NCBI GenBank assembly: GCA_963590165.1
Contig: CAVANO010000011.1
Span: 12,988 to 76,987 of the forward strand
DNA: 64,000 bases
Reading direction: 5' to 3'
DNA from: Anaerovoracaceae bacterium
GTDB taxonomy: Bacteria > Bacillota > Clostridia > Christensenellales > Aristaeellaceae
Shown here piece after piece: positions 4,281 through 63,875 of this stretch. The translations under genes and the position numbers were made by a program. The stretch's first letter is position 1. Every line of letters begins with the position of its first letter. The notes beneath the pieces are model-generated. The model saw only the letters and a program-made list of their open reading frames with translations. It was not told the origin of the DNA and searched no databases.

Positions 4281-4316
4281 CAAGGGGCTTTCCGATCGCC
4301 CCCTTGACCCCTTCGG
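4281..4316. repeat. Solo copy of the GC-hairpin intergenic repeat family
   Basis: caaGGGGCtttccgatcGCCCCcttgaccccttcgg immediately after the DUF58 stop. Same core as the arrays at 17.5, 21.5, 30.5, 52.5 and 63.6 kb. Confidence 0.85.
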
Positions 4317-4421
4317 CAGCACGCAATATCAATCATGATACCGAAAAACAGCAACGAAAAAGAGCTGCGTGCAAATACGCAATTGAAGGAGGTGTTTCTG
4401 CTGTCTGAGAAGGGACGCACG

Positions 4422-6701
4422 ATGTTATCCCGTGGCGTGGTGGCGCTGATGATGGCATCAGGCATGCTTCTGCCGCTGCTGATTGTCACGGGGACGCAGC
4501 GTCTGTGGCTGCCTGCCATTGCCTGTGCGCTGCCGGTGATTGCGGTGCTGGCAATCCGCCACCTTCATCCGCTGGGAAACATCCTCACCGGTGCAGCGTT
4601 CGGTATATTCTTTCTCATCTGGGCTGTTTGCGGCGGCATCGCGGATGCGGCGGAAGTTGTCCGCGCCCTGCTGCTGTATTTTTCCGGTCTGACAACGGCA
4701 CTGCCGATGGTCAGCCAGACCTTCGCGTGCCTGACAGGCGTTGTGTGCGCCTTCATCGGCTATGCGCTGACGAGCCGCCGAGTAGGGGCGTATCCGGCAC
4801 TGGCGGCGGTGCTGCTGATTGCGGTGCTGCTGTGGCTCGATGACCGTCCCGACGCGCTGTGGGGGCTGCTGCCGGCGGTCGTGCCGAGCGTGGCGATGCT
4901 GATGGTTTCCGGCTATGACGGCGTGCCGATGCGCCGCGTGCTGCCGCTGACGCTGATTGTTGTACTGCTGAGCTTCGTCGGCGTTGCAGTCGGCGGCGTG
5001 ACCATTGCACCGATGAAGGATGCGGCGGACACGCTCCGGCAGAAAATCTATGATTACTTCTTTTTCACGAGCACGCGCGACGTGTTTTCCATCTCCTCGC
5101 AGGGCTTTTATCCGCAGGGGCAGACGCAGCTGGGCGGTCCTGCCGAGCCGAACGACCAGCCTGTCATGACCGTGCGCGGCGAAGGGCGCATTTACCTGCG
5201 CGCCGTCAGCAAGAGCACGTACACGGGCAGCATGTGGGTCGATGAAACCGGCGGTCGGCGGTATCTGTGGAGCAGTCTGCGCTGGCAGAGCGTCCGCAAT
5301 ACCGTGTTCGAGCAGGACATGCCGGCGGACTCGGCCGGCGCGACCTTGCCTGTCAAGCAGGTGACCGTCACGATGCTGACGGACAGCGCAAGCAGTCTGT
5401 TTGTTCCGCAGCGCCTTTTGAGTCTCAAGACGGGCAGTACGATTGTGCCGTACTTCAACGCGAGCGGCGAGGTGTTTGCGACGCACAGCCTTGAATCCGG
5501 CGACACATGGACGGCGGAGTATGTCGACCTGATTGCCGGTCAATCGGGACTGACGGAGCTGATTGACGCCTGCGCGCAGCTGCCGGATGAACAGTATGAA
5601 TCGATGCGCGAAACATATACCGTGTTGCCGTCGCACCTGGAGCAGCGGCTGTTTGATTTTGCGCGCGATGCCGCCGGCGACACGACCGACCCATACGAAA
5701 TGGCGCGGAATATTCAGTCGTACCTGCAGTCGTACTGCAGTTACAACCTTGACATCGCGCAGCAGCAGGAGAATCTCGACTTTGTGGCGACCTTCCTGCT
5801 GATGACGCGCGAAGGCTACTGCACGCATTTCGCGTCCGCCATGACGGTGCTCTGCCGGATGGTCGGGCTGCCTGCACGGTATGTGGAGGGCTTTGTCGCG
5901 GACATCGGCGAATCGGGCAGCGCCGTCATCACCGGTGAAAGTGCCCATGCATGGACGGAAGTTTATTTCAGCGGACTTGGCTGGGTGACGTTCGACGCGA
6001 CGCCGTGGGCAGGGGCTTCATCGGATTCGTCCTCGGATGACCCGTCGACATTGCCGCCGCCGTCCGCATCGCCGTCTGCAACACCATCCCCTTCGCCTTC
6101 TCCTTCGCCGTCCCCATCCCCCTCGCCGTCGCCCTCGCCTTCGGATGATTCACAGGATGAGCAGGAGACACCGCTGCCTACCGATTCGCCGACGCCGTCG
6201 CCGACCGTTCCGTCTGCAACGGACATGCCGTCACCGACGCCGGAAAGCGAGCCGAATCAGCCGGATGAGCCGAATGACCTGTCATGGCTGTGGTGGCTGC
6301 TGCTGATGCTGCTGCTGATTGCGGCCATTGCGGCGCGCATCTGGTGGACGCTTCCGCAGACGTGCGAAAAGCGCGCGAAAGACGAGAACGACCGCAGCAC
6401 GGTTTACCTGCAGGCGGTGCATGATGCGCTGCGCGTTGCGGGTCTTGTCCGCGCGAATACCGAAACGCCGCAGATGTTCTTCCGTCGGGCGGAGCAGGCA
6501 GGCTGGACGGAGGCGTCCGCTGCCGGAACCATCGAGGAACTGCGCTTCTATGCGCATGCGGAATCATCACCTGAGCAGACGGATGTGCTGCGTCAGGCAT
6601 ATGCCGGCATGCGGCAGAAAATGAATGTGTGGCAGCGCATGCGGTTTGTGCTGCTGAGGGCTGCCGTGCCGCTGAAAATGCGGCTATTCACGGGCAAATA
6701 G
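4422..6701 (+). CDS. Transglutaminase-domain membrane protein (TgpA-like) with Pro/Ser-rich linker
   Basis: ORF 4335..6701. ATG 4422 has GAAGGGA 6 nt upstream, while ATG 4335 has no RBS. Multiple TM helices. Cys-His core REGYCTHFASAM...SAHAWTEVYF. (SP)n low-complexity tract, then a C-terminal TM. Confidence 0.85.
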   Translation: MLSRGVVALMMASGMLLPLLIVTGTQRLWLPAIACALPVIAVLAIRHLHPLGNILTGAAFGIFFLIWAVCGGIADAAEVVRALLLYFSGLTTALPMVSQTFACLTGVVCAFIGYALTSRRVGAYPALAAVLLIAVLLWLDDRPDALWGLLPAVVPSVAMLMVSGYDGVPMRRVLPLTLIVVLLSFVGVAVGGVTIAPMKDAADTLRQKIYDYFFFTSTRDVFSISSQGFYPQGQTQLGGPAEPNDQPVMTVRGEGRIYLRAVSKSTYTGSMWVDETGGRRYLWSSLRWQSVRNTVFEQDMPADSAGATLPVKQVTVTMLTDSASSLFVPQRLLSLKTGSTIVPYFNASGEVFATHSLESGDTWTAEYVDLIAGQSGLTELIDACAQLPDEQYESMRETYTVLPSHLEQRLFDFARDAAGDTTDPYEMARNIQSYLQSYCSYNLDIAQQQENLDFVATFLLMTREGYCTHFASAMTVLCRMVGLPARYVEGFVADIGESGSAVITGESAHAWTEVYFSGLGWVTFDATPWAGASSDSSSDDPSTLPPPSASPSATPSPSPSPSPSPSPSPSPSPSDDSQDEQETPLPTDSPTPSPTVPSATDMPSPTPESEPNQPDEPNDLSWLWWLLLMLLLIAAIAARIWWTLPQTCEKRAKDENDRSTVYLQAVHDALRVAGLVRANTETPQMFFRRAEQAGWTEASAAGTIEELRFYAHAESSPEQTDVLRQAYAGMRQKMNVWQRMRFVLLRAAVPLKMRLFTGK

Positions 6702-6735
6702 CCGAACAAGCAGAATGGATTGAGGAACAACAATG

Positions 6736-6766
6736 AAAGCAGCTATTTTGTGTAGCTGCTTTTTTT
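6736..6766 (+). terminator. Rho-independent terminator after the transglutaminase gene
   Basis: aaagcagct / agctgcttt stem with 9-nt loop, followed by a T7 run. Confidence 0.7.
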
Positions 6767-6810
6767 CATCCTTTTTTGCTGTTTTTCTCCTGTTTTTTGG
6801 CGAAAGTCTC

Positions 6811-6839
6811 TTGCAATTTTGCCTGAAATCATGTATGAT
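6811..6839 (+). promoter_or_regulatory. sigma-70-type promoter of serC-serA
   Basis: TTGCAA (6811-6816), 17 nt, TATGAT (6834-6839). Confidence 0.5.
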
Positions 6840-6920
6840 AGGCGCATGGAACGTTTTTCACCCTGTGGGCGATAATCGTCCCACATGAATAAGAAAGAAA
6901 TTATGAAGGAGGTGCACGCA

Positions 6921-7997: not shown

Positions 7998-8000
7998 AAA

Positions 8001-8120
8001 GGGTCAAGGGGGGGACTTCGTCCCTTTTCCTGTCCCTTGCAGGGCTTGGGCAACGCCCCAACCTGTTATTCGCAGCCGAGCGGACGGACTTCGTCCGTTT
8101 TCGTTGAACCCCTTCTTCGA
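8001..8120. repeat. Composite intergenic repeat (GGGACTTCGTCCC and CGGACTTCGTCCG-TTTT modules)
   Basis: gtcaaggggGGGACttcGTCCCttttcc ... cggaCGGACttcGTCCGttttcgttgaaccccttc. The same modules recur at 11.57, 21.2, 40.03, 43.55 and 63.53 kb. Confidence 0.8.
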
Positions 8121-8208
8121 ACTTGATTTGTAATGTGGCTTTTATAGGGCTGCCTTAAGTTTAGGAAAGGGCATTGCGAAGAGGCTTGGACAGAAATCAG
8201 ATGAAGTC

Positions 8209-8260
8209 GAAAAACCAGGCGAAGCAAAAAACCAGGCGAAGCAAAAAACCAGGCGAAGCC
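8209..8260. repeat. Three tandem copies of a 17-nt unit (AAAAAACCAGGCGAAGC)
   Basis: Read directly. The last copy runs into CAGGCgaaGCCTG, a mini-hairpin also present in the 21.2 kb array and at 61.95 and 63.59 kb. Lies 17 nt upstream of the serA ATG. Confidence 0.85.
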
Positions 8261-8276
8261 TGCGGGAGAAAACAAG

Positions 8277-9443: not shown

Positions 9444-9461
9444 TTCTGAACAATCAAAAGA

Positions 9462-21124: not shown

Positions 21125-21800
21125 TCAGAAACGGACTTCGTCTGATTTTTTGATTCCTTCGGTATCATGCTTGGTTTCATTTTCATGGTTAGACATTAGC
21201 AAATTGACAGGGGGCGATAGAACAGGCAAAGCCTGCGGTCGCGGACTTCGTCCGTTTTCTTCGACCCTTTCGGTATCATGCTTGGTTTCATTTTCATGGT
21301 TAGACATTAGCAAAATGACAGGGGGCGATAGAACAGGCAAAGCCTGCGGTCGCGGACTTCGCCCGTTTTCTTCGACCCCTTCGGTATCATGCTTGGTTTC
21401 ATTTTCATGGTTAGACATTAGCAAATTGACAGGGGGCGATAGAACAGGCAAAGCCTGCGGTCGCGGACTTCGTCCGTTTTCTTCGACCCCTTCGGTATCA
21501 TACTTGGTTTCATTTTCATGGTTAGACATTAGCAAATTGACAGGGGCTTTCCGGTCGCCCCCTTGACCCCTTCGGTATCATGCTTGGTTTCATTTTCATG
21601 GATGATTTTGTTTACGTTTTTCGGGGCTTTGCAATCGCCCCCGAACTCCTTCGCACAACTTGGTTTGTATTGCGGATTTTATTATAAAGCAAGCATGGAA
21701 AAAGTGTGCAGCCGAAGGGGTCAGGGGGCGATCGGAAAGCCCCCTGGGAAAGCCTCATAACAAAACTACTATGGAAATGAAAATTGCATGCCAAAGGCAG
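21125..21800. repeat. Tandem array B: 111-bp unit x about 4.5 plus extra GC-hairpin modules
   Basis: CTTCGGTATCATGCTTGG recurs at about 21157, 21268, 21379, 21490 and 21570. Units carry CAGGCaaaGCCTG and CGGACttcGTCCGtttt. The distal part has GGGGCtttccggtcGCCCCC, GGGGCtttgcaatcGCCCCC and GGGGGCgatcggaaaGCCCCC. Confidence 0.9.
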
Positions 21801-24723: not shown

Positions 24724-24830
24724 ATGCCTATTCTCCTCATGTTGTTGTGGGGAAACGGGTTCGGCAGGCGATTCCCCTGCTTTTCGTCCGGAGAACCGCC
24801 GCCGATGGGGAGCTTCAAATGGCTGCAATG

Positions 24831-24873
24831 GAAGGGGTCAAGGGGCAATTGCAAAGCCCCTTGTTGACCCCGC
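24831..24873. repeat. Solo GC-hairpin repeat
   Basis: ggaaggggtcaaGGGGCaattgcaaaGCCCCttgttgacccc, between the GH3 stop and the secreted-protein start. Confidence 0.8.
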
Positions 24874-28536: not shown

Positions 28537-29046
28537 ATGCAGCAGCTCTATCTGACCGGGCAGGGCGCGTCCGCCGCTGCCGAACGGGTGCTTCGTGCCA
28601 TCAATGTGCCGACCGCCGGATTTCGCCTGACGCCGTTTTCCGTGTCCGGCGAGGTTCGCGGCGAAGCGCTGCACTTCCTGCTGCCGCCGCCGTCACCGCT
28701 GCTCAATGACGTGCCGTGCCGCATCCGCATTCAGAGCGATTCGTGGCAGCTTGTGCCGAAGGTGATGGAGCAGATTGCCGCGCCGGGGCTCCGCGCCTGT
28801 CTGGGCACGCTGACGCCTGTGCTGGTCGATACGATTCATCCGGACATGCTTGCCGGCAAGGCATTCTGCGCGGTGCTTGACCAGCTGCAGGCAAGGGAGC
28901 GCCTATGCGTGTTTGTCGTGGCGGACGGCGCGGAGAAGAAGCTGCGCCGTATGATGCCGGTCGAACGTCAGCGGTGGTTCCGCGTCACGGACGTGCCGGA
29001 GGAAACGCTGATTGAAGCGGCGATGCTGCGCCTCAGCAGCCTGTAA
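28537..29046 (+). CDS. Hypothetical protein, possibly a degenerate NTPase (THEP1/NTPase_1-like) fold
   Basis: 169 aa. LYLTGQGASAAAERVL occupies the Walker-A position but lacks the GK[ST] lysine. It is followed by GFRL...GEVRGEAL, resembling GF.T.E.R..G.R.GF. Confidence 0.55.
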   Translation: MQQLYLTGQGASAAAERVLRAINVPTAGFRLTPFSVSGEVRGEALHFLLPPPSPLLNDVPCRIRIQSDSWQLVPKVMEQIAAPGLRACLGTLTPVLVDTIHPDMLAGKAFCAVLDQLQARERLCVFVVADGAEKKLRRMMPVERQRWFRVTDVPEETLIEAAMLRLSSL

Positions 29047-29052
29047 TTTTAG

Positions 29053-29212
29053 GGCAATACCGCACAATTCGGCGGCACCGCTGAACATGCTTTTTGCGCC
29101 ATCTGCGGCTTGCAAAAATCTCGATTTACATCCAGTAAACCTTCGATTTTTGCAATTGCATCTGACACAAAATTCATTGTTCATCGTACCACCTCATTTG
29201 TGCGGTATTGCC
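29053..29212. mobile_element. MITE-like element, copy 1 (160 bp, 15-nt terminal inverted repeats)
   Basis: GGCAATACCGCACAA ... TTGTGCGGTATTGCC. The internal arms match the inverted copy at 44896-45036. The central 11-bp hairpin TTGCAAAAATC/GATTTTTGCAA is unique to this copy. Lies between convergent genes. Confidence 0.7.
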
Positions 29213-29240
29213 TTAGGCAAATAAAAGGAAGGACAGCCGA

Positions 29241-30491: not shown

Positions 30492-31031
30492 TTCTCACTT
30501 CCATCGTCGAGCTTTAGCAAACGAACAAGGGGGCTTTCCGGTCGCCCCCTTAAACCCCTTCGGTTTTGGCGGATTATAATAGAACGCATGCCAGAAGGGT
30601 TCTCACTTCCATCGTCGAGTTTTAGCAAACGAAGAAGGGGGCTTTCCGGTCGCCCCCTTAAACCCCTTCGGTTTTGGCGGATTATAGTAGAACGCATGCC
30701 AGAAGGGTTCTCACTTCCATCGTCGAGTTTTAGCAAACGAAGAAGGGGGCTTTCCGGTCGCCCCCTTAAACCCCTTCGGTTTTGGCGGATTATAGTAGAA
30801 CGCATGCCAGAAGGGTTCTCACTTCCATCGTCGAGTTTTAGCAAACGAAGAAGGGGGCTTTCCGGTCGCCCCCTTAAACCCCTTCGGTTTTGGCGGATTA
30901 TAGTAGAACGCATGCCAGAAGGGTTCTCACTTCCATCGTCGAGTTTTAGCAAACGAAGAAGGGGGCTTTCCGGTCGCCCCCTTAAACCCCTTCGGTTTTG
31001 GCGGATTATATGATGGAACGCATGCCCGAAG
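30492..31031. repeat. Tandem array C: 108-bp unit x 5 (copies 2-5 essentially identical)
   Basis: TTCTCACTTCC recurs at 30492, 30600, 30708, 30816 and 30924. Each unit reads TCACTTCCATCGTCGAGTTTTAGCAAACGA + GGGGGCtttccggtcGCCCCC + ttaaaCCCCTTCGGttttgg + a TATA-rich box. Confidence 0.92.
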
Positions 31032-31062
31032 GGGTTCGGGGGCGAGATGAAAGCATCCGATT

Positions 31063-31104
31063 ACAAAGAAAACCGGCAGGAACCGCCATGCAGCTCCTAC
31101 CGGT
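31063..31104 (-). terminator. Rho-independent terminator of rny
   Basis: Minus strand: ACCGGTAGGA ... TCCTGCCGGT (one G-U pair) followed by TTTCTTTG, 11 nt after the rny stop. Confidence 0.6.
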
Positions 31105-39985: not shown

Positions 39986-40011
39986 GAGGTTTGCCTCCTT
40001 ATTTTGACTTT

Positions 40012-40200
40012 TGCGGGCTTTGTGATTGCGGATTTCGTCCGTTTTCGTTGAACCCCTTCGGGCATACTTGTCATTTCCATCGTTGAGCTTTGGCAAACGA
40101 TATAATGCCTTGCATTTTAAACCCACTATGGAAGTGCGAATCCGAAGGGTGCAGGGGCGACCGGAAAGATCCTGCTCGCCTCCGCAGAGGCGAAACCCCT
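40012..40200. repeat. Composite of three repeat-family modules (solo)
   Basis: GGGCTTTGTGATTGCGGAtttcGTCCGttttcgttgaaCCCCTTCGG (as at 43.55 kb). TCATTTCCATCGTTGAGCTTTGGCAAACGA (as in array C). CCGAAGGGTGCAGGGGCGACCGGAAAGATCCTGCTCGCCTCCGCAGAGGCGAAACCCC (as in arrays A and D). Confidence 0.85.
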
Positions 40201-40258
40201 GATTGTCCAATCATCACTGATTTCTCCGAAGGAATTGAAGCAAGTGACGGTAAAGCCC

Positions 40259-43200
40259 TTACTTCAATTCTCCGCTTGCTTTCATGGCTTCGTACTGCTC
40301 CAGCGAAATCAGGCAGCGGCGGGGCTTTGCGCCGTCCTTAGCAGAGATGATGCCGCGCTGCTCCATTTCATCGACAAGGCGTCCTGCGCGCGCATAGCCG
40401 AGCTTCAGCCGGCGCTGAATCAGGCTGGTCGAGACCTCGCGGTCGCGCACTGCCATTTCCACGCACTGCGAGAACAGGTCACGGTCGGACGCGGCGTATT
40501 CATCCACGGTCGAATTGGCATCGGGGTCGTCTTCGTCGCCGTCGTTGCCGGCGTTCTCAAGGCGAGCCATTTCATCCAGCACGGAATTGTCGTAGTTGGC
40601 AGGCGAATACTGGCGGATAAAGTCGGTAATGCCGTTGACCTCATCGTCTGTCAGGAAGCAACCCTGCACACGAATCGGCGTAAACTCGCCCATCGGCATG
40701 TACAGCATATCGCCGTAGCCCAGCAGCTGTTCGGCACCGTTGCGGTCGAGAATCGTGCGGCTGTCGACGTTCGAGGACACCTTAAACGCGATTCGGCTGG
40801 GGATATTCGCCTTAATCAGACCGGTAATGACATCCACGGACGGACGTTGCGTTGCGACGACCAGATGAATGCCGGCAGCACGGGCGAGCTGCGCCAGACG
40901 GCAGATGCGCTCTTCGACTTCCTTCTTGCACGTCATCATCAGGTCAGCCAGCTCGTCAATCACGATGACGATGCGCGGCAGCGGCTCTTCGTCCTCATCA
41001 AGGGACTCGTTGTAGCCGTCAATGGCGCGGACGCCCTTTTCCTGGAACAGCGTGTAGCGGTTCATCATCTCGCCGACTGCCCAGCCCAGCGCGCCGCTTG
41101 CCTTATGCGGGTCGGACACGACAGGAATCAGCAGGTGCGGAATGCCGTTGTAGCACTGCAATTCAACGACCTTCGGGTCAACGAGAATCATGCGGACTTC
41201 CTTGGGCGAGCAGCGGTACAGCAGCGAATTGATAATCGTGTTGATACACACGGATTTACCAGAACCGGTTGCACCGGCAATCAGCAGATGCGGCATTTTC
41301 GCAAGGTCGCAGAGAATCGGCACGCCGGCAATGTCCTTGCCGAGTGCGACGCTCAGCCGTCCCTTTGCCTTGCGCATCACGTCGGACTGCAGGACTTCCT
41401 TGAGCGTGACGGTCGTGCGTGCGCTGTTCGGCACCTCAACGCCGACAAGTGCCTTGCCGGGAATGGGCGCTTCGATGCGGACGGACTTGACCGCCATATT
41501 CATGGCGATGTTGTGGTTGAGGTTCGTGACCTTCGAGACCTTGATGCCCGGCGCGATTTCCAGCTCAAAGCGCGAAATCGCCGGTCCGTGCGTGATGTGG
41601 CGCACTTTCGCCGGAATGCGGAAGGACTTAAGCGTCTCTTCCAGCCGCTGGGTGCGCATGATATCCTCCTCCTCACTGATGCCCTGCTGAGGCGGCGGGT
41701 CGCGCAGGAGGATGACCGGCGGATACGTGTAGGGGATTTCAGGGTTGTAGGTGGACATGGCGGATGCGCCTGTTGCACTCGGTCCGCCGGACGGCGCTTC
41801 GGCGGTCGGTTTGGCGACCATGATGCCCTGCTTGGCGGAAGGCGGCGTGAAATCAGGCTTCTGCAGCGTTTCAGGGACGCTCCGCATGCCGGTGGACTTC
41901 TCCTGCGGTAGCTTCAATTCAGGCTGCCACGCGCCCTCGGGACGCGGTTGCGTCAGTACGGGCGACACAGCCTCCTTCGGCGCCTCCTCCGACTCCTCCC
42001 ACGGCGGACGGTCATCGAGCGACTCCGGAAATTCCGGCTCATCCTCAAGATCCTCCTCTGAAGGCTGTGCAACAGGCTTCGCCTGATTTGGCTCTGCCTG
42101 ATTTGGCATTGCCTGGTCTGGCATTGCCTGCACAGGCGATGTCTGTTGTGCCGTTTGCACAGGCGAAGCCTGTTGCGTCGTTTGCACAGGCGAAGCCTGC
42201 TGCATCGGTACGTCATTCCAGGTATACTGCGCCGGCGCACCGAGACCGGTATCTGCATTGCTCTTCGGCAGCTCATATGGGTCGATATTCGGCGGCTCAA
42301 CGGTCTCCGCATCGGTAAACGCCGGATTTTGCGCTGTATTGCCCTGCGGTTCCACTGCCTGCACAGCGCCCGTGCTGCTCCATGCAGAACGGCGGCGCGG
42401 CGTTGTCCAGCCTTCCGCAACGCTCGTCTGACCAAGTTCCTCCGCTGTCGGCGCGAAGCCGATATGGGTGTTCTTCCGGCTCTGAACGGAGGTAATCGGC
42501 TGCCCCTGCATTTCCGGCTTCGTGGGCTGATTCACCTGCTGCGGCCGCTGGTACGGGCTCTGTGCACCCTGCTGAGCCGTTGTCCCGGTTACCGGGTTCC
42601 CGGTTATCGGCTGCCCGGTTACCGGATTCCCGGCGACCGGGTTCCCGGTTATCGGATTCCCGGCGACCGGGTTCCCGGTTATCGGGTTCCCGGCGACCGG
42701 TTGCCTCGTTGTGCCGGGACGGGCATAAGGAGACGGACCACCCTGCGTATATCCGCCGCCATAGGGCTGCTGCGCCTGCGCTGCAATCTGCTGCTGACGC
42801 GCTGCTTCCTGACGGCGCGCCTCCTCCTCGGCGGCACGTTCAGCGCGCTCCTCCTGCCGCTCGCGTGCCAGTTCCAAGCGCTCGCTCAATGCTTCCTTCA
42901 GCCGTTTGACGAGCGGCCAGCAGCCAATCAGCACATCCACCGCAATCAGCAGACCCAGCACAACCGTGCCGAGCGTTCCGCCGAGGTACTTCCACAGCGG
43001 CCACGCCAGCAGCATGCCGACCATGCCGCCGCCCTGTCCCTTCATGCCATAGGTCATGCTCCGCGACATCATGCCGCCGAAGCTGTCAGAACCGTCAAGT
43101 GCCTTGATATAATCCGGCAGACAGAGCTGCCCTTCATTCGTGCTGACGAACGTCACCAGCGTCAGGAAACCGCACAGCAGCACGACAAGAATCGCATAGC

Positions 43201-43510: not shown

Positions 43511-43533
43511 TCTGTCCTCCTAATGGTTCTCTT

Positions 43534-43582
43534 TGGGGGCTTTGTGATTGCGGACTTCGTCCGATTTTCAGAACCCCTTCGC
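43534..43582. repeat. Solo repeat module
   Basis: GGGGGCTTTGTGATTGCGGACttcGTCCGattttcagaaCCCCTTCG, a near-copy of 40012-40060. Confidence 0.8.
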
Positions 43583-43593: not shown

Positions 43594-44826
43594 TCAAAGC
43601 TGATTCTCCGCTTGCATCAGCATAACCATCTTCAAAACGCCGTCTTCATCGGCATGCAGACATAGCGTTGCATTCTCCCATAGCGCGTAATAGTCCGTTT
43701 GCCCTGCGACCATGCGACGCAATTCAGCATCGTCTGCGCTGACGTTTGCCGTGCTGTCTGGTTCGCCGAGCGCCTCACGCCATTCCGCCTGCGTCGTCCG
43801 GCCGGTCATCAACCCGCAGAGCATCAGCCGCTCTGTCCGAATAACCTGAACAATGCTGCTGTTGAGGCTGTCGGTCAGATTGTCCGTCAGGAGCGATACG
43901 CCGCGGAATGCGCCGTCCTCCAGCGAAATCAGCCGCTGACTGCCTGCCAAGTCGGGGTCGTTCAGCAGCGCGTACGTATCAATGAGCGACTGCACATTGT
44001 CGCCAAGCGCCGCCGGAATACCGGGGAATGCACCGCCTGCGAGCACCTGACGGATCGTTTCCTTCGCGTCTGCCGGGAAAGCCATCTGCGACGGTACGCC
44101 CAGCCGCGTCAGGATGCTGCCATCCGACAAATCAAGCACCTCCGCGATTTCGCTCCAGAGAATCGTGATTGTGCCGGCACGCTCCGCCAGCGTTTCAAAC
44201 CGCTGAATCGGGTAATGGAATGTGATGGCGTATTCCGTGAGCGAAAACACGTCCGGCACCGGCAGCAGTTCCGCCGCGCCCAGATGATCGCTCAGCTCCG
44301 GCTCGATTGTCTCTTCAATCAGCGCAGTGATGGCATCGTTTGCCGCATCCGCATCGGTGAAAAGCGCGTCCAGCGAGATGCTTTCGCCGGTGCGCAGGTC
44401 AATATTAACGGCAGACCACGCCTGCGTTGAGCGTTCGGTCTCCAGTGCGCCGTCCGCAAGAAAAGCCACGGACAGCACATCGCCGGTCAATGTTGCCGTG
44501 TAGGAAACATCGATGCTGACCGGCAGGGACATCAACGCGGTCATGCGGGTCAGGCGGCTTTCAATCTGTCCGGCGGTTAAAATGGCATCGTTGACGGATT
44601 GCTGAAGCGCTTCATCCGCCATGCCCGTCACGGCAGGATAGCGGACGCTGCTTCCGCCCAGCGAAAGTCCTGCATCCGTCAGGGTGACAGCGGTGTTTTC
44701 AGCCGGCTTTTCCGGTGCATCGCCGATTCGGGTGACGCCGCCCTGCTCCGCCTTCGCAAGGGGCGGATTCTGCATTGCGGCGGTCAGCAGCATCATGGCA
44801 AGCAACAGGGAAACTGCTCGTTTCAT
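43594..44826 (-). CDS. Secreted protein, DUF4163/DUF3298 (RsiV-like) candidate
   Basis: ORF 43594..44832. ATG 44826 has GGAGG 9 nt upstream. Signal peptide MKRAVSLLLAMMLLTAAM...AKA. VRYPAVTGMADEALQQSVNDAI pattern. Confidence 0.7.
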   Translation of the reverse strand: MKRAVSLLLAMMLLTAAMQNPPLAKAEQGGVTRIGDAPEKPAENTAVTLTDAGLSLGGSSVRYPAVTGMADEALQQSVNDAILTAGQIESRLTRMTALMSLPVSIDVSYTATLTGDVLSVAFLADGALETERSTQAWSAVNIDLRTGESISLDALFTDADAANDAITALIEETIEPELSDHLGAAELLPVPDVFSLTEYAITFHYPIQRFETLAERAGTITILWSEIAEVLDLSDGSILTRLGVPSQMAFPADAKETIRQVLAGGAFPGIPAALGDNVQSLIDTYALLNDPDLAGSQRLISLEDGAFRGVSLLTDNLTDSLNSSIVQVIRTERLMLCGLMTGRTTQAEWREALGEPDSTANVSADDAELRRMVAGQTDYYALWENATLCLHADEDGVLKMVMLMQAENQL

Positions 44827-44895
44827 CAGCATAGTCCTCCTTGTGTGATTCTATTTTACATCATCTAACGAATTCACGCAAGTTTATCTTCCCAA

Positions 44896-45036
44896 GGCAA
44901 CACCGCACAAATGAGGTGATATGATGAACAGTGAATTTTGTGTCAAAGGCAGACCGGCGAAATAAACTTTTATTTCGGCGCCGCAGTTGGTGCAAAAGGC
45001 ATGTTCAGCGGCGCCACTGAATTGTGCGGTATTGCC
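44896..45036. mobile_element. MITE-like element, copy 2 (141 bp, inverted relative to copy 1)
   Basis: GGCAACACCGCACAA ... TTGTGCGGTATTGCC. The arms match copy 1 in reverse complement. The central hairpin differs (GCGAAATAAacttTTATTTCGgC). Confidence 0.7.
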
Positions 45037-45114
45037 GTAACTGCGGGCAAAAGAAGAGGCTGCCTCTCCCGACCTGACGGTCCTGTTGAGACAGCCTCCG
45101 AAAGGCCGTTGTGA

Positions 45115-46911
45115 TTACTTGTTTTCCGGCATGATAACCGCCTTGATGCGGCGCACGCCTGCGGAGGAGCTTTCCTCCTTCTGAATCTTGAAGCCGCCCA
45201 GCTCGCCCGTGGTCTGTGCATGCGGGCCGCCGCAGATTTCAAAGGAGTAATCGCCCATCTTGTACGTGCGGACGCGCTCGCCGTACTTGGATTCAAACAG
45301 ACCGATGGCACCCTTCGCCTTCGCTTCCGGCACCGTCATTTCCTCGCAGACGACCGGCACATTTGCGGCAATCGCCTCGTTGACGAGCTTTTCGACCTCG
45401 GCCAGCTCTTCCTTGGTCACCTTGCGGCCGAAGGAGAAGTCGAAGCGGAGGCGCTCAGCGGTGATGTTCGAGCCCTTCTGCGCGACCTCGTCGCCCAGCA
45501 CCTTGCGCAGCGCCGCGTGCAGCAGATGCGTCGCGGTGTGCAGGCGTGCCGTCTCGACGCTCGTGTCCGCCAGACCGCCCTTGAACTTCTGCTCAGCGCC
45601 CTGATGGCTCAGCTCCTGATGCTTGCGGAATGCCTCGGCGAAGCCTTCCGTGTCAACCGTCAGACCGCGCTCGCCAGCCAGCTCAACCGTCATTTCAATC
45701 GGGAAGCCGAACGTGTCATAGAGGTGGAAGGCGGTTTCGCCGTCAATCTTGCCGTCGGCGGCGCGGGTCGCGACCTTGTCGAATTCCTTGTTGCCCTGCT
45801 TGAGGGTGCGTGCGAAGCGATTTTCCTCCAGCGCAAGCTGTTCGAGCACGAATGCAGCGTTGCGTGCCAGTTCGGGATATGCTTCCTTGTACTGGTCGAT
45901 AATCACGCGCGCGATGTCGCCGGTGAAGCCGTCAGGCATGCCGATCTGCATGCCGTAGCGGACGGTGCGGCGGATCAGGCGGCGGAGGATATAGCCCTGA
46001 TCGGTGTTGGACGGGGACACGCCGCGGTCATCGCCGAGGATGAAAGTGGACGTGCGCATATGGTCGGCAATAATGCGGAATGCCTTGGTCGTGTCGGCAT
46101 CCTGCTCATACGTCTTGCCGGACAGCTCGGCGATCTTCGCGAGAATGTTGGTGAATGCGTCCGTCTCGTAGACCGTCTTCTTGCCGGTCAGCACGCAGAT
46201 GGTGCGCTCCAGACCCATGCCGGTATCGACATTCTTCTGCTTGAGCGGGATGAACGTGCCGTCCTTTTGCTTGTTGTACTGCATGAAGACGTCGTTCCAG
46301 ATTTCCAGATACGCGCCGCAGTGGCAGGCAGGCGAGCAGTTCGGGCCGCAGGGCTTCTTGGTGATGATGAACATTTCCGTATCCGGACCGCACGGACCCG
46401 TGATGCCGGCAGGTCCCCACCAGTTATGCTCCTTGGGCAGGTAGAACAGGTGATCATCCTTCACGCCGCAGCTGCGCCAGAGGTTTGCCGCCTCCTCGTC
46501 GCGCGGGCAGTCTTCATCGCCCTCGAAGACGGTGAACGCCAGCTTATCGGGATCAAGCCCCAGATACTGTTCGCTCGTGAGGAACTCCCAGCTCCACGGG
46601 ATCATTTCCTTCTTGAAATAATCGCCCAGCGACCAGTTGCCCAGCATCTCGAAGAACGTCAGGTGGCTCGGATCGCCCACATCATCGATATCGCCGGTGC
46701 GGATGCACTTCTGCACGTCCGTCAGGCGTGTGCCGGCGGGATGCGGCGTACCCATCAGGTACGGCACCAGCGGATGCATGCCGGCGGTGGTGAAGAGGAC
46801 AGTGGGGTCATTCTCCGGAATGACGGAGGCGGACGGAATGCGATGATGTCCCTTCGATTCCATGAACTTCTGGAACATTTCCCGCAGCTGTGCGGAGGTG
46901 ATCTGCTTCAT
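45115..46911 (-). CDS. alaS: Alanine--tRNA ligase homologue lacking the C-Ala domain (598 aa)
   Basis: ORF 45115..46941. ATG 46911 lies after GAAGGGAG. FTTAGMHPLVPYLMG, TFFEMLGNWSLGDYFK (class II core). Editing-domain HTATHLLHAAL and CGGPH. Stops right after AGVRRIKAV. Confidence 0.85.
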   Translation of the reverse strand: MKQITSAQLREMFQKFMESKGHHRIPSASVIPENDPTVLFTTAGMHPLVPYLMGTPHPAGTRLTDVQKCIRTGDIDDVGDPSHLTFFEMLGNWSLGDYFKKEMIPWSWEFLTSEQYLGLDPDKLAFTVFEGDEDCPRDEEAANLWRSCGVKDDHLFYLPKEHNWWGPAGITGPCGPDTEMFIITKKPCGPNCSPACHCGAYLEIWNDVFMQYNKQKDGTFIPLKQKNVDTGMGLERTICVLTGKKTVYETDAFTNILAKIAELSGKTYEQDADTTKAFRIIADHMRTSTFILGDDRGVSPSNTDQGYILRRLIRRTVRYGMQIGMPDGFTGDIARVIIDQYKEAYPELARNAAFVLEQLALEENRFARTLKQGNKEFDKVATRAADGKIDGETAFHLYDTFGFPIEMTVELAGERGLTVDTEGFAEAFRKHQELSHQGAEQKFKGGLADTSVETARLHTATHLLHAALRKVLGDEVAQKGSNITAERLRFDFSFGRKVTKEELAEVEKLVNEAIAANVPVVCEEMTVPEAKAKGAIGLFESKYGERVRTYKMGDYSFEICGGPHAQTTGELGGFKIQKEESSSAGVRRIKAVIMPENK

Positions 46912-48484: not shown

Positions 48485-50056
48485 TTACTCGCCTGCCATG
48501 ATGGCATTCACCGCGTCGACAACCGCCTGAGAGGTGATCGTTGCGCTGGTCACCGCATCAATGCCGTCGCCCAGCGTGAACGGTGCCTTCTTGCCGATGA
48601 ACTGCGCCGTGAATTCGTCTTCCGCGCACTTCTGACCCAGACCGGCGGTCTGCGTAGAAGCATCCACGCGCAGCGTCTTGATGACGCCGTCTTCATCCGT
48701 CACATACACGATGACATCGCCGTCGCCGAAGCCCTTGACCGTCACGGTCTTTTCGTCAGCAGGAACTTCCGGTTCGGCTGCGTACAGGCTGTTCACTGCA
48801 TCGACAACCGCCTGAGAGGTGATTGTTGCGCTTGCCACCGCATCAATGCCGTCGCCCAGCGTGAACGGTGCCTTCTTGCCGATGAACTGCGCCGTGAATT
48901 CGTCCTCTGCGCACTTCTGACCCAGACCGGCGGTCTGCGTAGAAGCGTCCACGCGCAGCGTCTTGATGACGCCGTCTTCGTCCGTCACATACACGATGAC
49001 ATCGCCATCGCCGAAGCCCTTGACCGTTACGGTCTTTTCGTCAGCAGGAGCTTCGCTCGCTTCCGGCTCGTTCACTTCCGACTCGCTCGCTTCCGTTTCG
49101 GCTGCTGCTTCCGGCTCAGCCGTTGCTTCCGGCTCAGCTGCAGCCAGCTCGTCTTCCGTCATTGCGGGAGCTTCCAGCGCTGCATTGATGGCTTCGACCG
49201 CCGCCGTCGAGGAGATCGTCGCGCCGGTCAGCGCATCCACGCCGTCACCCAGCGTGAACGGACCGCTCTTGCCGATGAACTGCGCCGTGAACTCTTCGCC
49301 TGCGCAGCGCGTGCCGAGACCTTCGGTCTGCGTGCTCGCATCGATGGTCAGCGCGGAAATCGTGCCGTCATCGTTGAGCGTCAGGCGCGCAACCACTTCA
49401 CCGCCGCCAAAGCCCGATGCCGTGCCCTGATGCACATCACCCGTCAGCACAACAGGCTCGGCAGCCGCCGTCTCCTGCTTCGCGCCGAAGGACAGCGGGT
49501 CGCCCTCGACATCCTTGCCGAGGACATGGCTGATGCACTTGAGCACGTTGTTGGAGGCAGTCAGCACCGCATTCGAGGTGAGCGTCGCGCCGGAAATCGC
49601 CTCGATGGTATCGCCGCCGTACGCGCTCACGCCCTTGAACTGCACCGCGCGTTCAGCCTCCTGCCAGCGTGCACCGAAACCGGCCGTTTCGGAGAAATTC
49701 GTATCGCCGATCTGGGCGCCGGTCACCTTGCCGTCCATGTCAACGCCGAGCGTGACCGCGACATCGCCGCCGTAGCCCTTCGCGGACGACACGGCACAGT
49801 AGCCGATGGTCTGACCGCCTTTCTTTGCCTCGACGAGCTTCGACACGTCGTAGCCCTCGGGAATGTCCATCGTGCTGAAGGTGTCAGCCTCCATGACGGA
49901 CTGGAAAGCGGCGTTCTGCGCGGCTTCCTCATGTTCCTTGATTGGTCCCTCGGTGATTGCATTTGTCACAGCCAGCGCCAGTGCAGCCACCAGTGCGATA
50001 ATCGCCAGAATGACATACGCCGGAAGCTGCTTTTTCGTTGCCTTGTTCTCGCTCAT
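48485..50056 (-). CDS. Membrane-anchored protein with four FMN-binding (FMN_bind) domains
   Basis: GGAGGAGG RBS. N-terminal TM. Four domains with flavinylation-type motifs SGATLTS, TGATISS and SATITS (x2). Domains 3 and 4 are a near-identical tandem duplication. Confidence 0.85.
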   Translation of the reverse strand: MSENKATKKQLPAYVILAIIALVAALALAVTNAITEGPIKEHEEAAQNAAFQSVMEADTFSTMDIPEGYDVSKLVEAKKGGQTIGYCAVSSAKGYGGDVAVTLGVDMDGKVTGAQIGDTNFSETAGFGARWQEAERAVQFKGVSAYGGDTIEAISGATLTSNAVLTASNNVLKCISHVLGKDVEGDPLSFGAKQETAAAEPVVLTGDVHQGTASGFGGGEVVARLTLNDDGTISALTIDASTQTEGLGTRCAGEEFTAQFIGKSGPFTLGDGVDALTGATISSTAAVEAINAALEAPAMTEDELAAAEPEATAEPEAAAETEASESEVNEPEASEAPADEKTVTVKGFGDGDVIVYVTDEDGVIKTLRVDASTQTAGLGQKCAEDEFTAQFIGKKAPFTLGDGIDAVASATITSQAVVDAVNSLYAAEPEVPADEKTVTVKGFGDGDVIVYVTDEDGVIKTLRVDASTQTAGLGQKCAEDEFTAQFIGKKAPFTLGDGIDAVTSATITSQAVVDAVNAIMAGE

Positions 50057-52377: not shown

Positions 52378-52389
52378 TTTTTCTTTTGC

Positions 52390-52895
52390 AGCAAAGGTTT
52401 CGCATCTGCGGATGCGGGCAGGGGCTTTGCGATCACCCTTGCACCCTTCGAATTCCGATCTTAGCAATCGGTCGCTATTGTAACAGGAAAGTTTCGCGTC
52501 TGCGGATGCGAGCAGGGACTTTGCGATCGCCCCTGCACCCTTCGCATTCCGATCTTTGCAATCGGTCACTATTGTAACAGGAAGGTTTCGCATCTGCGGA
52601 TGCGGGCAGGGGCTTTGCGATCACCCTTGCACCCTTCGAATTCCGATCTTAGCAATCGGTCGCTATTGTAACAGGAAAGTTTCGCGTCTGCGGATGCGAG
52701 CAGGGACTTTGCGATCGCCCCTGCACCCTTCGCATTCCGATCTTTGCAATCGGTCACTATTGTAACAGGAAGGTTTCGCATCTGCGGATGCGAGCAGGGG
52801 CTTTGCGATCGCCCCTGCACCCTTCGCATTCCGATCTTAGCAATCGGTCGCTATTGTAACAGGAAGGTTTCGCGTCTGCGGATGCGGGCAGGGGC
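52390..52895 (+). repeat. Tandem array D: 94-bp unit x about 5.4, alternating variants (188-bp super-period)
   Basis: GTTTCGC recurs at 52397, 52491, 52585, 52679, 52773 and 52867. Each unit has three hairpins: CGCRTCtgcgGATGCG, GCAGGGGCtttgcgatcRCCCYTGC and CCGATctt(a/t)gcaATCGG. Fills the panT-coaX gap. Confidence 0.92.
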
Positions 52896-59345: not shown

Positions 59346-59367
59346 CCCCACAGAAAGGAGCATTCCC

Positions 59368-60060: not shown

Positions 60061-60073
60061 AATGGCATAACAA

Positions 60074-60108
60074 AAACCTGCTGCTTGTGATAAGCAACAG
60101 GTTTTTTT
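60074..60108. terminator. Bidirectional terminator between deoC and argS
   Basis: AAACCTGCTGCTT-gtgat-AAGCAACAGGTTT followed by TTTT, preceded by an A-run. Confidence 0.75.
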
Positions 60109-60120
60109 CGCAGACCTGCT

Positions 60121-61848: not shown

Positions 61849-61878
61849 TGCTCCTTGTCATCCAGTTTATCCAAAGCT

Positions 61879-61907
61879 ATCATAACACATTTTCCCTTGC
61901 GGTGCAA
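61879..61907 (-). promoter_or_regulatory. sigma-70-type promoter of argS
   Basis: Minus strand: TTGCAC (61902-61907), 17 nt, TATGAT (61879-61884). The -35 box abuts a repeat-family module. Confidence 0.5.
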
Positions 61908-61909
61908 CA

Positions 61910-61976
61910 GGGTGAACACAGGCTTCGCCTGTTTTATAGCCCTTGGCAGTTTGCTAAAGCTCAATGATGAAAATGA
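61910..61976 (-). repeat. Solo repeat module related to the array B/C units
   Basis: Minus strand: TCATTTTCATCATTGAGCTTTAGCAAACTGCCAAGGGCTATAAAACAGGCgaaGCCTGTgttcaccc. Compare array B ...TTAGCAAATTGACAGGGGGCGATAGAACAGGCaaaGCCTG. Confidence 0.7.
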
Positions 61977-62089
61977 AACCCTTTTGCATAGTTTTGCAGC
62001 AAAATTCATAAAATCTTCACATAATGAATGCCAATTTTACACCGATTTGATGTATACTGAAAATAGCAAGATAAACGGAGGTGATCACC

Positions 62090-62851
62090 ATGGCGAATGT
62101 CCAATGCTCCTTTGAGCGCGTGGAGAAGAAATTCCTGCTGACGCAGCTGCAGGCAAAGGCGCTTCTGCATGATTTGCGCACCTATATGGAAATCGACCAG
62201 TACGGTCGGCACACGATCCGGAATCTGTATTTTGATACACCGGATTACGCGGTGATCCGCCGCTCTGTGCTCAAGCCGGTTTATAAGGTGAAATTCCGCC
62301 TTCGCGCATACGGTACGCCGGCGCGTGATACGCTGGTGTTCGCAGAGCTGAAGAAGAAGTATAAGGGGATCGTCTATAAGCGCCGCATTGCCGCCGCGCC
62401 GGAGGAACTGTCACGTTTCCTGCAGGGGGTGATGCTTCCGGACGAGCCGAACGTGCAGATTCAGCGCGAGCTGCACCGGTATCTGCAGGAGCATCCGGTT
62501 GCGCCGCGCGTGCTGCTGTCGTATGAGCGGATTGCACTGTTCGGGCGCGAGGATTCCGCGCTGCGCGTGACGTTTGACACGAACCTGCGCTTCCGGACGG
62601 ATCGCCTGGAGCAGTTCACGGATGATTCAGGGCGGCTGATCTGCGATGACAATCCGGTCGTGCTGGAAATCAAGCTCGCGCATGCTGCACCGTTGTGGCT
62701 GACGCACCTGTTGAGCCGCCATCACTGCTACATGACGTCCTTCTCCAAATACGGCACGTGCTACCTGAAGCATCTGGCATGCAATGTGCCTGACATCCGT
62801 GCTATGATTCCCTGCGAAAGCAACAAAGGAGCAAACGAATATGTTTCTTGA
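62090..62851 (+). CDS. VTC-domain (polyphosphate polymerase-like) protein
   Basis: ORF 62081..62851. ATG 62090 lies 8 nt after GGAGG. FERVEKKFLL...IRNLYFDTPDY...VYKRRI pattern of bacterial VTC/CYTH-like proteins. Confidence 0.7.
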   Translation: MANVQCSFERVEKKFLLTQLQAKALLHDLRTYMEIDQYGRHTIRNLYFDTPDYAVIRRSVLKPVYKVKFRLRAYGTPARDTLVFAELKKKYKGIVYKRRIAAAPEELSRFLQGVMLPDEPNVQIQRELHRYLQEHPVAPRVLLSYERIALFGREDSALRVTFDTNLRFRTDRLEQFTDDSGRLICDDNPVVLEIKLAHAAPLWLTHLLSRHHCYMTSFSKYGTCYLKHLACNVPDIRAMIPCESNKGANEYVS

Positions 62852-63506
62852 TTCCATTCTCCCTTCGACATTGACCGTTCCTTCCCTGCTGATGTGCCTC
62901 GGCGCATCGTTGGTTCTGGGCATTCTCACGGCGATTGTGTTCACGCGCGGCTGCCGCCATTCCGCATCGTTCGCGCTGACGCTTGCGCTCCTGCCGATGA
63001 CCGTCGCGCTGGTGATTATGCTGGTCAACGGCAGCATCGGCACAGGGCTTGCCGTCGCGGGCACATTCGCGCTGGTGCGTTTCCGTTCGATTCCCGGCAC
63101 GGCGCGCGAGATTGCCGCCATTTTCACGGCGGTCGCCATCGGGCTGGCAATGGGCACGGGTATGCTGGGCATTGCGGTGATTTTCTTCGTGCTGTCTGCT
63201 GCAGCCGTGCTGATTCTGACCGCACTGCATTTCGGCGAACCGGCAAAGAACGAGAAGCAGCTGCGCATCACCGTGCCGGAAGACCTTGACTACGAGCACG
63301 CATTCACGGAAGTGTTCGCCGCGCATCAGGTGAAGGCTACGCTGGAAAAGGTGCATTCGGTCAGCATGGGTACGCTGTTTGAGCTGACGTATCAGCTGAA
63401 GCTGCCCGGGGATATTCCGTCGAAGGCACTGATGGATGATTTACGTGAGCGCAACGGCAATTTGCCGATCCTATTTACATCCGCTGCGGATGATGGCATG
63501 ATGTAA
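62841..63506 (+). CDS. DUF4956-domain membrane protein
   Basis: AAAGGAG RBS, 11-nt overlap with the VTC gene. 3-4 TM helices. FALVRFRSIPGTAREIAAIF motif. Usual partner of VTC-domain genes. Confidence 0.7.
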   Translation: MFLDSILPSTLTVPSLLMCLGASLVLGILTAIVFTRGCRHSASFALTLALLPMTVALVIMLVNGSIGTGLAVAGTFALVRFRSIPGTAREIAAIFTAVAIGLAMGTGMLGIAVIFFVLSAAAVLILTALHFGEPAKNEKQLRITVPEDLDYEHAFTEVFAAHQVKATLEKVHSVSMGTLFELTYQLKLPGDIPSKALMDDLRERNGNLPILFTSAADDGMM

Positions 63507-63512
63507 CAGGCA

Positions 63513-63875
63513 GGCTTCGCGGACTTCGCAGACTTCGCGGACTTCGTCCGTTTTTTCAGACTTCGCAGACTTCGTCTGTCTTTTTCAGGCTTTGCCTGAT
63601 TTTGACCCCTTCGGGTAAGTACCCTGCGAAGGGGTTCGGGGACGACCGCAAAGCCCCCGAAACAGAATATAGCGATCTCCAATACCCAATAGAGTAGCAA
63701 TAAAAAAAGCCTTCGGGTAAGCGCACTGCGAAGGGGTTCGGGGGCGAGCGCAAAGCCCCCGAAACAGAATATAGTTATCCCCAATACCCAATAGAGTAGC
63801 AATAAAAACCCCTTCGGGTAAGTACCCTGCGAAGGGTTTCGGGGGCGAGCGCAAAGCCCCCGAAATAGACATTCC
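63513..63875. repeat. Array F: GACTTCG mini-hairpin cluster followed by a 101/102-bp unit x about 2.6
   Basis: CGGACttcGTCCGtttttt and CAGACttcGTCTGtcttttt, then CCTTCGGGTAAG at 63608, 63710 and 63811. Each unit has CCCCTTCGGGTAagTACCCtgcGAAGGGG and TTCGGGGGCgagcgcaaaGCCCCCGAA. Confidence 0.9.

Follow-up and report, generated by a model that had tools for sequence, protein, structure and literature searches.

Background

A stretch of 64,000 nt from a Clostridia genome (Anaerovoracaceae bacterium, assembly GCA_963590165.1, contig CAVANO010000011.1, positions 12,988 to 76,987 of the forward strand; "the window" below means this whole stretch) raises the question of what a short GC-rich hairpin is doing in so many of its intergenic gaps. 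A first-pass annotation, made from the sequence alone, had noticed about two dozen occurrences of the hairpin core, all outside credible genes and joined with other small hairpins, and had likened their organisation to BIME/REP or BOX elements with different sequences. Among interspersed hairpin repeats, the REP elements and REPIN-RAYT systems of Proteobacteria and the BOX elements of pneumococci have been studied well. Literature searches by exact sequence, for REPIN/RAYT in Firmicutes and for MITEs (miniature inverted-repeat transposable elements) in Ruminococcaceae returned no description of this hairpin family, nor any for the Clostridia of Oscillospiraceae or Ruminococcaceae type that dominate gut and rumen communities.

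In this study, we follow the hairpin through the window, at least 118 loci from a species-representative genome collection and 44 stretches of IMG/VR viral contigs, with genes in the fetched loci called by a codon model trained on the window; loci are cited by L-number. We lean towards reading it as the core of a non-autonomous REP/REPIN/BOX-like interspersed repeat family that replicates within genomes, with the local tandem arrays as a secondary development and phages as carriers. Two features of the family are new, namely a covariation between a tag in front of the hairpin and the hairpin loop, and the occurrence of the same unit across many Clostridia metagenome-assembled genomes (MAGs) and siphovirus contigs.

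Recurrence and intergenic location

Dinucleotide-preserving shuffles lead one to expect 0.12 exact matches to GGGGC-N9-GCCCC, and the window has 15; when up to one mismatch is allowed, it has 20 where 3.8 are expected. A covariance model of a 47-nt unit, trained on 92 gap-free copies from other genomes and applied with a cut-off of E<=0.003, finds 22 copies (9 on the plus and 13 on the minus strand; Table 1) and is strand-specific, copies scoring 24-54 bits in one orientation (17.5 for the degenerate unit at 31024) and ~10 in the reverse. The recurrence reported in the first-pass annotation stands at the positions where it was read, except that its "degenerate" copy at ~8045 keeps the stem pattern (at 8041) with a different loop and is missed by the model. 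The flank CCGAAGGG/CCCTTCGG and the 9-nt loop GAnCGnAAA that it described can both be read in the sequence, as can the accompanying modules CGGAC-TTC-GTCCG, CAGGC-RAA-GCCTG, CGCNTC-CGCA-GANGCG and CCGAT-N7-ATCGG, and self-BLAST of the window, together with the other genomes, bears out that these modules are recombined between loci.

All 22 copies are intergenic by the codon-usage gene call, with none in genes, as had been claimed; they lie in 8 separate intergenic regions of a window of which ~14% is non-coding, and the hairpin family makes up roughly 30% of the intergenic DNA. The genes around them are ordinary chromosomal housekeeping genes, SMC, GidB, RNase Y, FtsK, AlaRS, ArgRS and CoaX among them. 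Since 16 of the 22 copies fall within four of five tandem arrays, the window represents ~8 independent loci and not ~24 independent insertions.

That the pattern is an artefact, made of look-alike GC-rich terminator hairpins or of arrays produced by assembly, is scarcely credible. Short-read assemblies do often break at such arrays, and one locus (L120) begins inside array D, but the excess of exact matches over expectation speaks against chance, the identical 9-nt loop and 9-nt tag occur in more than 200 distinct copies from more than 100 independent assemblies, and point differences between array units (89-98% identity) show that these are not assembly duplicates. What comes after the main hairpin is CTGG.. 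or ACCCCTTCGG, and in neither orientation a U/T tract, which also separates it from terminator look-alikes. An intrinsic terminator was accordingly rejected as an identity for the main hairpin, and a terminator scan of array C returns only the terminator of RNase Y; the small module CGGAC-TTC-GTCCG-TTTT, in contrast, is terminator-like.

Structure and covariation of the unit

Alignment of the window copies with those of other genomes defines a conserved unit of ~37 nt, which begins with a tag, 5'-SCGAAGGGG(T), continues with a stem extension of 3-5 bp that varies and covaries, and ends in GGGGGC-GAYCGS'AAA-GCCCCC; written with its variants, the core is GGGG(G)C, a loop GA(Y/G)CGS'AAA, GCCCC(C) and the complementary extension. 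The main hairpin has a G+C stem of 9-11 bp and a loop of 9 nt. The tag head (C/G)CGAAGGGG is found in 154 of 162 copies, and in an unbiased tally of every GGGGC-N7-11-GCCCC in the fetched loci six loops account for 247 of the 282 hairpins. Compensatory changes preserve the stem extension: its positions 1-3 are Watson-Crick in 93, 89 and 82% of cases and each show three to four kinds of Watson-Crick pair, the extension pairs comprise 3-5 pair types each, and paired cells reach 97.9% in a 92-copy alignment, where shuffles give 85.4% and slid controls 22-55%.

A further covariation joins the tag base S (5' of CGAAGG) to the sixth loop base S', which form C:G in 112 copies, G:C in 42 and U:G in 1, with 3 mismatched (in the gap-free set CG 67, GC 22, UG 1, other 2). 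The tag 5'-SCG-3' is complementary to the loop 5'-CGS'-3', and the G:C type lengthens the pairing to UGCG:CGCA, which implies that in single-stranded form the unit would fold into a 3-bp H-type pseudoknot, its tag paired with the hairpin loop and its G-rich connector possibly occupying a groove of the G-C stem. We do not think that this covariation is mere linkage within two subfamilies, since the C:G and G:C types share the stem-extension variants TGCAG, TCAAG, TCCAG, TTCG and TTTG, the third loop position varies independently of the S:S' type, five genomes, the window's included, contain both types, and a composite in L206 has two arms of opposite type, each internally complementary.

About a quarter of the copies continue into a second hairpin (stem-CGCA-stem, covarying) followed by RAA and a CCCC/CYCY strand that is able to close on the GGGG of the tag, giving a three-way junction. 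For the units of arrays A and D this junction is the predicted minimum-energy fold, with z = -3.8 and -5.4.

Folding of this kind raises the alternative that the unit is a structured RNA in the first place, a pseudoknotted hairpin or a three-way junction with a pseudoknot, and that its spread through genomes is secondary; such an RNA might block exonucleases (RNase J or 3' exonucleases), serve as a processing or self-cleavage site, or bind a conserved protein. We regard this as unlikely, although it would account well for the Watson-Crick covariation of a tertiary pair, for predicted junctions far stabler than their shuffles, and for a geometry that appears to suit an H-type pseudoknot, with a 3-nt A-/U-rich loop and a 7-nt G-/C-rich strand for which a groove of the G-C stem could be the place. 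In the three-way-junction form, moreover, nearly all changes in the strand that closes on GGGG are between C and T (G:T 36-37, others 2-3, a count biased by the choice of register). Several observations do not suit an RNA. G:U is not in excess over A:C in the main stem, where the mismatches are about equal (G:T 9, A:C 14); the second hairpin and the closing stem are missing from ~3/4 of the copies; and the 37-nt unit leaves no room for a promoter, which, together with the lack of a T-tract, argues against a co-transcribed, sense-specific RNA element. Rfam 15 gives no match at gathering thresholds anywhere in the window, and a search of array A at E<=10, known self-cleaving ribozymes included, gives chance-level matches only, so the Rfam check suggested by the first-pass annotation turned up no described RNA family.

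Distribution among Clostridia genomes

Dozens of other gut and rumen Clostridia, and also their phages, carry the unit nearly unchanged. Among the matches listed it is found in MAGs and in isolates, under labels that include Ruminococcus, Oscillospiraceae, Faecalibacterium, Ruminiclostridium and Clostridiales, in carrier loci whose GC content ranges from 34 to 69% while the sequence of the unit hardly alters. The intergenic bias seen in the window holds in the bacterial loci elsewhere, where none of ~86 interior copies lies inside a gene. Orientation relative to the flanking genes is random in bacteria (36 sense, 31 antisense, 11 convergent and 8 divergent among ~86 copies), a result that stands against a structured RNA and, taken with the equal G:T and A:C mismatches, fits an element acting at the DNA level. 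A replication-strand bias was also considered and is unsupported, as neighbouring copies in bacterial loci have the same orientation in 7 cases and opposite orientations in 8.

Within this constancy each genome has one dominant stem variant, and the identity of the stem extension is 62.6% within genomes and 4.1% between them, which points to proliferation or homogenisation within genomes. Presence and number differ between strains as well. An exact-protein look-up led to no more than two short contigs of the window's species. In L119, a contig of that species, array D is wholly absent, and only the segment beside the array in the window is kept. In a related species, represented by the nearest gidB relatives (81% identical, from human gut metagenomes), the site downstream of gidB has three alleles, of which one is the second-hairpin module by itself, another a palindromic composite of ~290 nt with two arms, and the third a short hairpin remnant. 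Another site that is polymorphic stands upstream of a dehydrogenase gene. Palindromic two-arm composites also occur in L206 and L207, and the MAG RGIG2676 has ~20 copies of one of ~300 nt; in L086, bare units stand head-to-tail with a 35-nt period.

These data bear on another alternative, a host-beneficial DNA site that a conserved Clostridial protein, such as a nucleoid or topology, replication or recombination factor, would bind or cleave, kept by selection at each site and not by transposition. Gyrase and IHF bind REP/BIME, the function of such a site would not depend on orientation, copies are dense and fairly even (~1 per 3 kb in the window and in one related species alike), and the sequence is conserved in distant hosts and phages. 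We nevertheless find this account quite improbable, as copy presence and number vary between strains, stem variants are genome-specific, a protein binding double-stranded DNA would not enforce hairpin or tag-loop complementarity, and 3-6 identical units per array are hard to reconcile with site-by-site selection.

Occurrence in phages

Bacteria and their phages have the family in common. Many viral contigs with the unit are true structural modules of siphoviruses, in which genes for terminase, portal, protease, capsid, tail and tape measure are present, and the unit frequently stands right after the major capsid or major tail gene. In five diverged phage relatives the post-capsid unit is near-perfectly conserved, unlike the capsid gene's end and the spacer downstream, which have both diverged; two further relatives (L144 and L155) have no unit there and show overlapping genes (TGATG) instead. 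Among the viral loci (L121-L164), orientation relative to genes differs from phage to phage. Programmed read-through after capsid genes was considered and rejected, as the frame closes again after 8 codons. PLSDB plasmids gave no match, and INPHARED phages nothing beyond 10 unverified gut-virome scaffolds.

For the structured-RNA alternative the phage data cut both ways. The antisense copies start at a median of 7 nt past the stop codon of capsid or tail genes, and the near-invariant sequence in hosts of 34-69% GC, together with the orthologous phage site, is what an RNA under selection might show; copies are, however, mixed with respect to co-directional genes (20:28), much as they are random in bacteria (36:31).

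Arrays and single elements in the window

Five intergenic tandem arrays with periods of 94-135 nt, named A to E, and several single elements make up the family in the window (Table 1). Array A separates the minus-strand genes of SMC and GidB, and its unit consists of the tag, hairpin P2, hairpin P3 (TCGCCTC-CGCA-GAGGCGA), AAACCC and an AT-rich linker. Array B has a mosaic unit of the reverse-complement tag, CGGAC-TTC-GTCCG, CAGGC-AAA-GCCTG and half a P2 hairpin. Array C, downstream of the RNase Y terminator, repeats the tag, P2, a variable hairpin, the closing strand AACCCTTCTGG and a linker containing TATAAT; array D, between the ECF-S and CoaX genes, repeats the tag TGCGAAGGG, P2 (loop GATCGCAAA), P3, AACCTTC and a CCGAT-N7-ATCGG hairpin; and array E is built of an ACCCCTTCGG...CGAAGGGGT outer hairpin, P2 (loop GAGCGCAAA, of G:C type) and a linker. 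Units within an array are 89-98% identical, whereas different arrays have only modules in common and differ in linkers and period, which fits local amplification.

Outside the arrays, the single unit at 4273 begins 7 nt past the stop of a DUF58 gene, in a 61-nt gap between two plus-strand genes, and the accessory module at 8085-8115 matches 21464-21493 and 40029-40059 by self-BLAST. The composite at 40010-40210 runs in order through a mini-hairpin, a T-run, ACCCCTTCGG, an AT-rich core of ~75 nt, CCGAAGGG, P2 with a decayed 3' arm, P3 and AAACCCC.

Table 1. Members of the hairpin family in the window, with the start positions of the 22 copies found by the covariance model
Feature	Position	Strand	Model copy starts	Support
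Single minimal unit (tag CCGAAGGGG + hairpin)	4273..4318	-	4273	52.7 bits
Accessory module, CGGAC-TTC-GTCCG + TTTTCGTTGA + ACCCCTTC (reverse-complement tag), without main hairpin	8085..8115	+		
Tandem array A, 135 nt x 2.7	17533..17891	+	17644, 17779	Tandem repeat finder, model
Tandem array B, 111 nt x 3.7	21132..21546	-		Tandem repeat finder, self-BLAST
Three units adjoining array B	21531-21577 (-), 21613-21656 (-, loop GATTGCAAA), 21710-21755 (+)	-, -, +	21531, 21613, 21710	Model
Degenerate single unit, loop AATTGCAAA, tag GGAAGGGG	24827..24871	+	24827	28.1 bits
Tandem array C, 108 nt x 5.1, 98% identity	30486..31033	-	30518, 30626, 30734, 30842, 30950	Tandem repeat finder, model
Degenerate opposite-orientation unit ending array C	31024..31068	+	31024	17.5 bits
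Composite element	40010..40210	+	40140	Self-BLAST; model 40140-40183, 30.1 bits
Accessory-module copy, shared with 40010-40060	43532..43581	+		Self-BLAST, 88% over 52 nt
Tandem array D, 94 nt x 5.4 (188-nt super-repeat)	52389..52895	-	52410, 52504, 52598, 52692, 52786	Tandem repeat finder, model
Lone copy of the array B AT-rich linker, adjoining a CAGGC-TTC-GCCTG mini-hairpin	61919..61980	-		Self-BLAST
Run of 9-nt repeats (GCAGACTTC/GCGGACTTC) and of terminator-like mini-hairpins with T-runs behind them, leading into array E	63510..63604	+		
Tandem array E, 102 nt x 2.6	63605..63869	+	63624, 63726, 63827	Tandem repeat finder, model

Four of the five periods (135, 111, 108 and 102) are multiples of 3, with a chance probability of ~p = 0.045. 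Coding repeats were rejected, the open reading frames (ORFs) of the arrays scoring -0.73 to 0.00 per codon against at least 0.25 for real genes, and so was a CRISPR array, since whole units with their linkers are 89-98% identical within an array, where a CRISPR array would have unique spacers of similar length. Two further short tandem repeats in intergenic DNA, perfect or nearly so, are AAAAACCAGGCGAAGCA x 2.9 at 8210-8259, which ends in a CAGGC-GAA-GCCTG mini-hairpin, and TTCGTCCCTTTTCT x 4.9 at 11580-11652; they look related to the mini-hairpin modules. At 21195-21250 of the window and in L172, L178, L189, L192 and L206 (~270-340), a CAGAC-GAAT-GTCTG or CAGGC-AAA-GCCTG hairpin sits inside the 9-nt main loop, which suggests nested insertion of mini-hairpin modules.

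Search for a mobilising enzyme

The first-pass annotation had seen no RAYT transposase in the window, and tblastn agrees: queried with the IS200-type TnpA of L035 and a putative E. coli RAYT sequence, the window yields no Y1 transposase. The search was extended to ~1.8 Mb of sequence fetched around copies of the unit. Clustering of ORFs around the at least 118 genome loci and the 44 viral loci revealed no recurrent neighbour gene, Pfam and PHROGs identified no transposase among recurrent or repeat-flanked ORFs, the spacers between inverted copies included, and no insertion sequence with matching ends was found. A regular-expression scan of the fetched loci for HUH/Y motifs, and tblastn with the two queries, likewise gave no transposase other than the IS200 of L035, the only Y1 transposase in the ~1.8 Mb: in this MAG from uncultured Clostridia, a tnpA gene of IS200 type, low in GC and interrupted by an in-frame stop (4340-4851), lies ~140 nt from a hairpin unit, an association that is probably coincidental.

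Other features of the window

The window also has two copies of another MITE-like element, unrelated to the hairpin family, ~170 nt long and with GGCAATACCGCACAA as its terminal inverted repeats, one at 29049-29225, past a gene ending at 29046, and one at 44883-45040, between an AlaRS-like ORF and the next. That AlaRS-like ORF (45115-46911) is just 598 aa long and is followed, beyond the gap with the element, by a 412-aa ORF (43594-44832) without a Pfam match, so that the two could form a split or unusual AlaRS arrangement. The tandem duplication at 48507-49054 (285 nt x 1.9, 95% identical), in a gene for a protein with four FMN_bind domains, is a coding domain duplication unrelated to the hairpin family, and a 15/30/45-nt repeat at 42583-42700 (TCCCGGTTACCGGGT x 7.4) within the FtsK/SpoIIIE gene is probably a low-complexity linker region.

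A proposed mobile repeat and its alternatives

The BIME/REP- or BOX-like organisation with new sequences that the first-pass annotation proposed is supported by a family that is intergenic, modular and without an Rfam counterpart; what it missed were the local tandem amplification, the flank-loop pairing, the three-way-junction form and the conservation across genomes and phages. On the reading we lean towards, the replicating core would be the ~37-nt unit, folded as a single strand with its tag-loop pseudoknot, to which optional modules (the CGCA-loop hairpin, the closing CCCC strand, terminator-like small hairpins and AT-rich cores) may be added to make larger units, some of them two-arm palindromes in the manner of REPINs or MITEs. 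The folded unit would be recognised, and copied into intergenic DNA, by an enzyme that acts in trans and has its gene at another place in the genome; its best analogy is a Y1/HUH-type transposase acting on single-stranded DNA. Two nearby copies that point the same way could then, through slippage or unequal recombination, give rise to arrays of unit and spacer with a 94-135 nt period, and the same process could delete them; gain and loss of this kind fit the state of L119 and resemble the variation of boxB number in pneumococcal BOX (PMC3049150). Phages, which carry the unit, are probably its vehicle from host to host, and behind their capsid and tail genes the hairpin may have been recruited as a 3' structure of the mRNA.

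Several results weigh against this reading. No target-site duplication or target consensus was seen at the polymorphic sites, where the haplotypes have diverged, and no transposase was found in the window, beside copies or between inverted copies, a weak negative given that only ~1.8 Mb was covered. Neighbouring copies in phages are co-oriented (14 same, 2 opposite), unlike those in bacteria. The near-invariance of the unit at 34-69% GC and its better conservation than the capsid end at the phage site point to constraint or homogenisation beyond selfish spread, and the C/T-only variation opposite GGGG, within the bias of that count, hints at strand-specific, RNA-like wobble folding. The structured RNA and the host-factor DNA site both stay alive as rivals to a mobile repeat through the conservation seen across taxa and at the orthologous site in phages.

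A bolder proposal, which we put forward only tentatively, is that the unit represents a new folded nucleic-acid module, its loop paired with its own tag, that is read by a Clostridia-wide factor. The factor could be a hitherto unrecognised domesticated transposase system outside Proteobacteria, or the unit could be a new class of small structured RNA, nuclease-blocking or self-processing, that phages have put right after capsid and tail genes. If true, either would explain the near-invariance in such different hosts. The conservation across taxa, unusual for elements of this type, in any case suggests a conserved partner, and the covarying tag-loop pair offers a hypothesis on repeat recognition that mutation can test. 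In practice, the family breaks short-read assemblies, and its strain-variable arrays beside housekeeping genes could serve as typing markers.

Comparison with known repeat families

The composite forms of the family, of 150-330 nt, recall MITEs (Correia/CREE, RUP, ERIC, bcr1, Nezha; PMC3049150) in being non-coding, with long terminal inverted arms around a central core, and in their presence or absence between strains. The hairpin family differs from them in not being AT-rich; no target-site duplication was seen at its polymorphic sites, whose haplotypes have diverged, nor, among the sequences examined, an insertion sequence with matching ends. Terminal inverted repeats occur in the ~300-nt composites and are absent from the 37-nt minimal unit, which stands alone or stacks head-to-tail at 35 nt (L086).

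Mycobacterial intergenic variable-number tandem repeats (VNTRs) of MIRU type are direct tandem arrays between housekeeping genes with strain-variable copy number. The arrays in the window are similar to these in unit length (50-135 nt) and in the prevalence of periods that are multiples of 3, but their ORFs are non-coding by codon usage and their unit is built on a hairpin found across genomes.

The closest functional parallels are REP/BIME and the REPIN-RAYT system, in which a REPIN consists of two inverted REPs and RAYT is a single-copy Y1 transposase (PMC3116915, PMC3337134, PMC3733652). As far as the abstracts of these reports go, the likeness extends to a short imperfect palindrome with a conserved single-stranded 5' head, an extragenic position, no coding capacity, clustering with other short motifs, hundreds of copies per genome (an extrapolation in our case), genome-specific master variants and inverted two-arm composites (L206/L207 and RGIG2676), the window itself holding mostly single units and direct arrays. 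The head, on the other hand, is SCGAAGGGG and not the GTAG or CGTC given for REPs in that text, and the hosts are Clostridia, whereas the GTAG/CGTC survey makes no mention of Firmicutes. Window copies form direct tandem arrays where BIMEs alternate, and no RAYT accompanies the family in the window or the ~1.8 Mb of fetched loci. REPs are, moreover, lineage-specific, while the present unit occurs in more than 100 assemblies from many genera at 34-69% GC and on phage contigs. The head of the hairpin family also pairs with its own loop, and to our knowledge head-loop base-pairing has not been described for REPs.

BOX of S. pneumoniae and S. suis (boxA-boxB(n)-boxC; PMC3049150) is alike in being a modular Firmicutes composite, intergenic and strongly folded, with an internal module in tandem whose number varies between strains, no identified transposase, and modules recombined into different families. 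The same features appear here in modules shuffled between loci, in arrays of 2.6-5.4 units and in the absence of array D from L119. The hairpin family differs in being G+C-rich and not typical of a low-GC host, in amplifying the whole unit and spacer with an array-specific linker, in a 37-nt core that appears capable of a pseudoknot, and in its presence in many genera and phages; judged by the G+C-rich composition of the core alone, homology to boxA, boxB or boxC is unlikely. With neither the GTAG/CGTC head nor the lineage specificity of REPs, the family is best described as one that works like REP/REPIN or BOX, without being counted in either.

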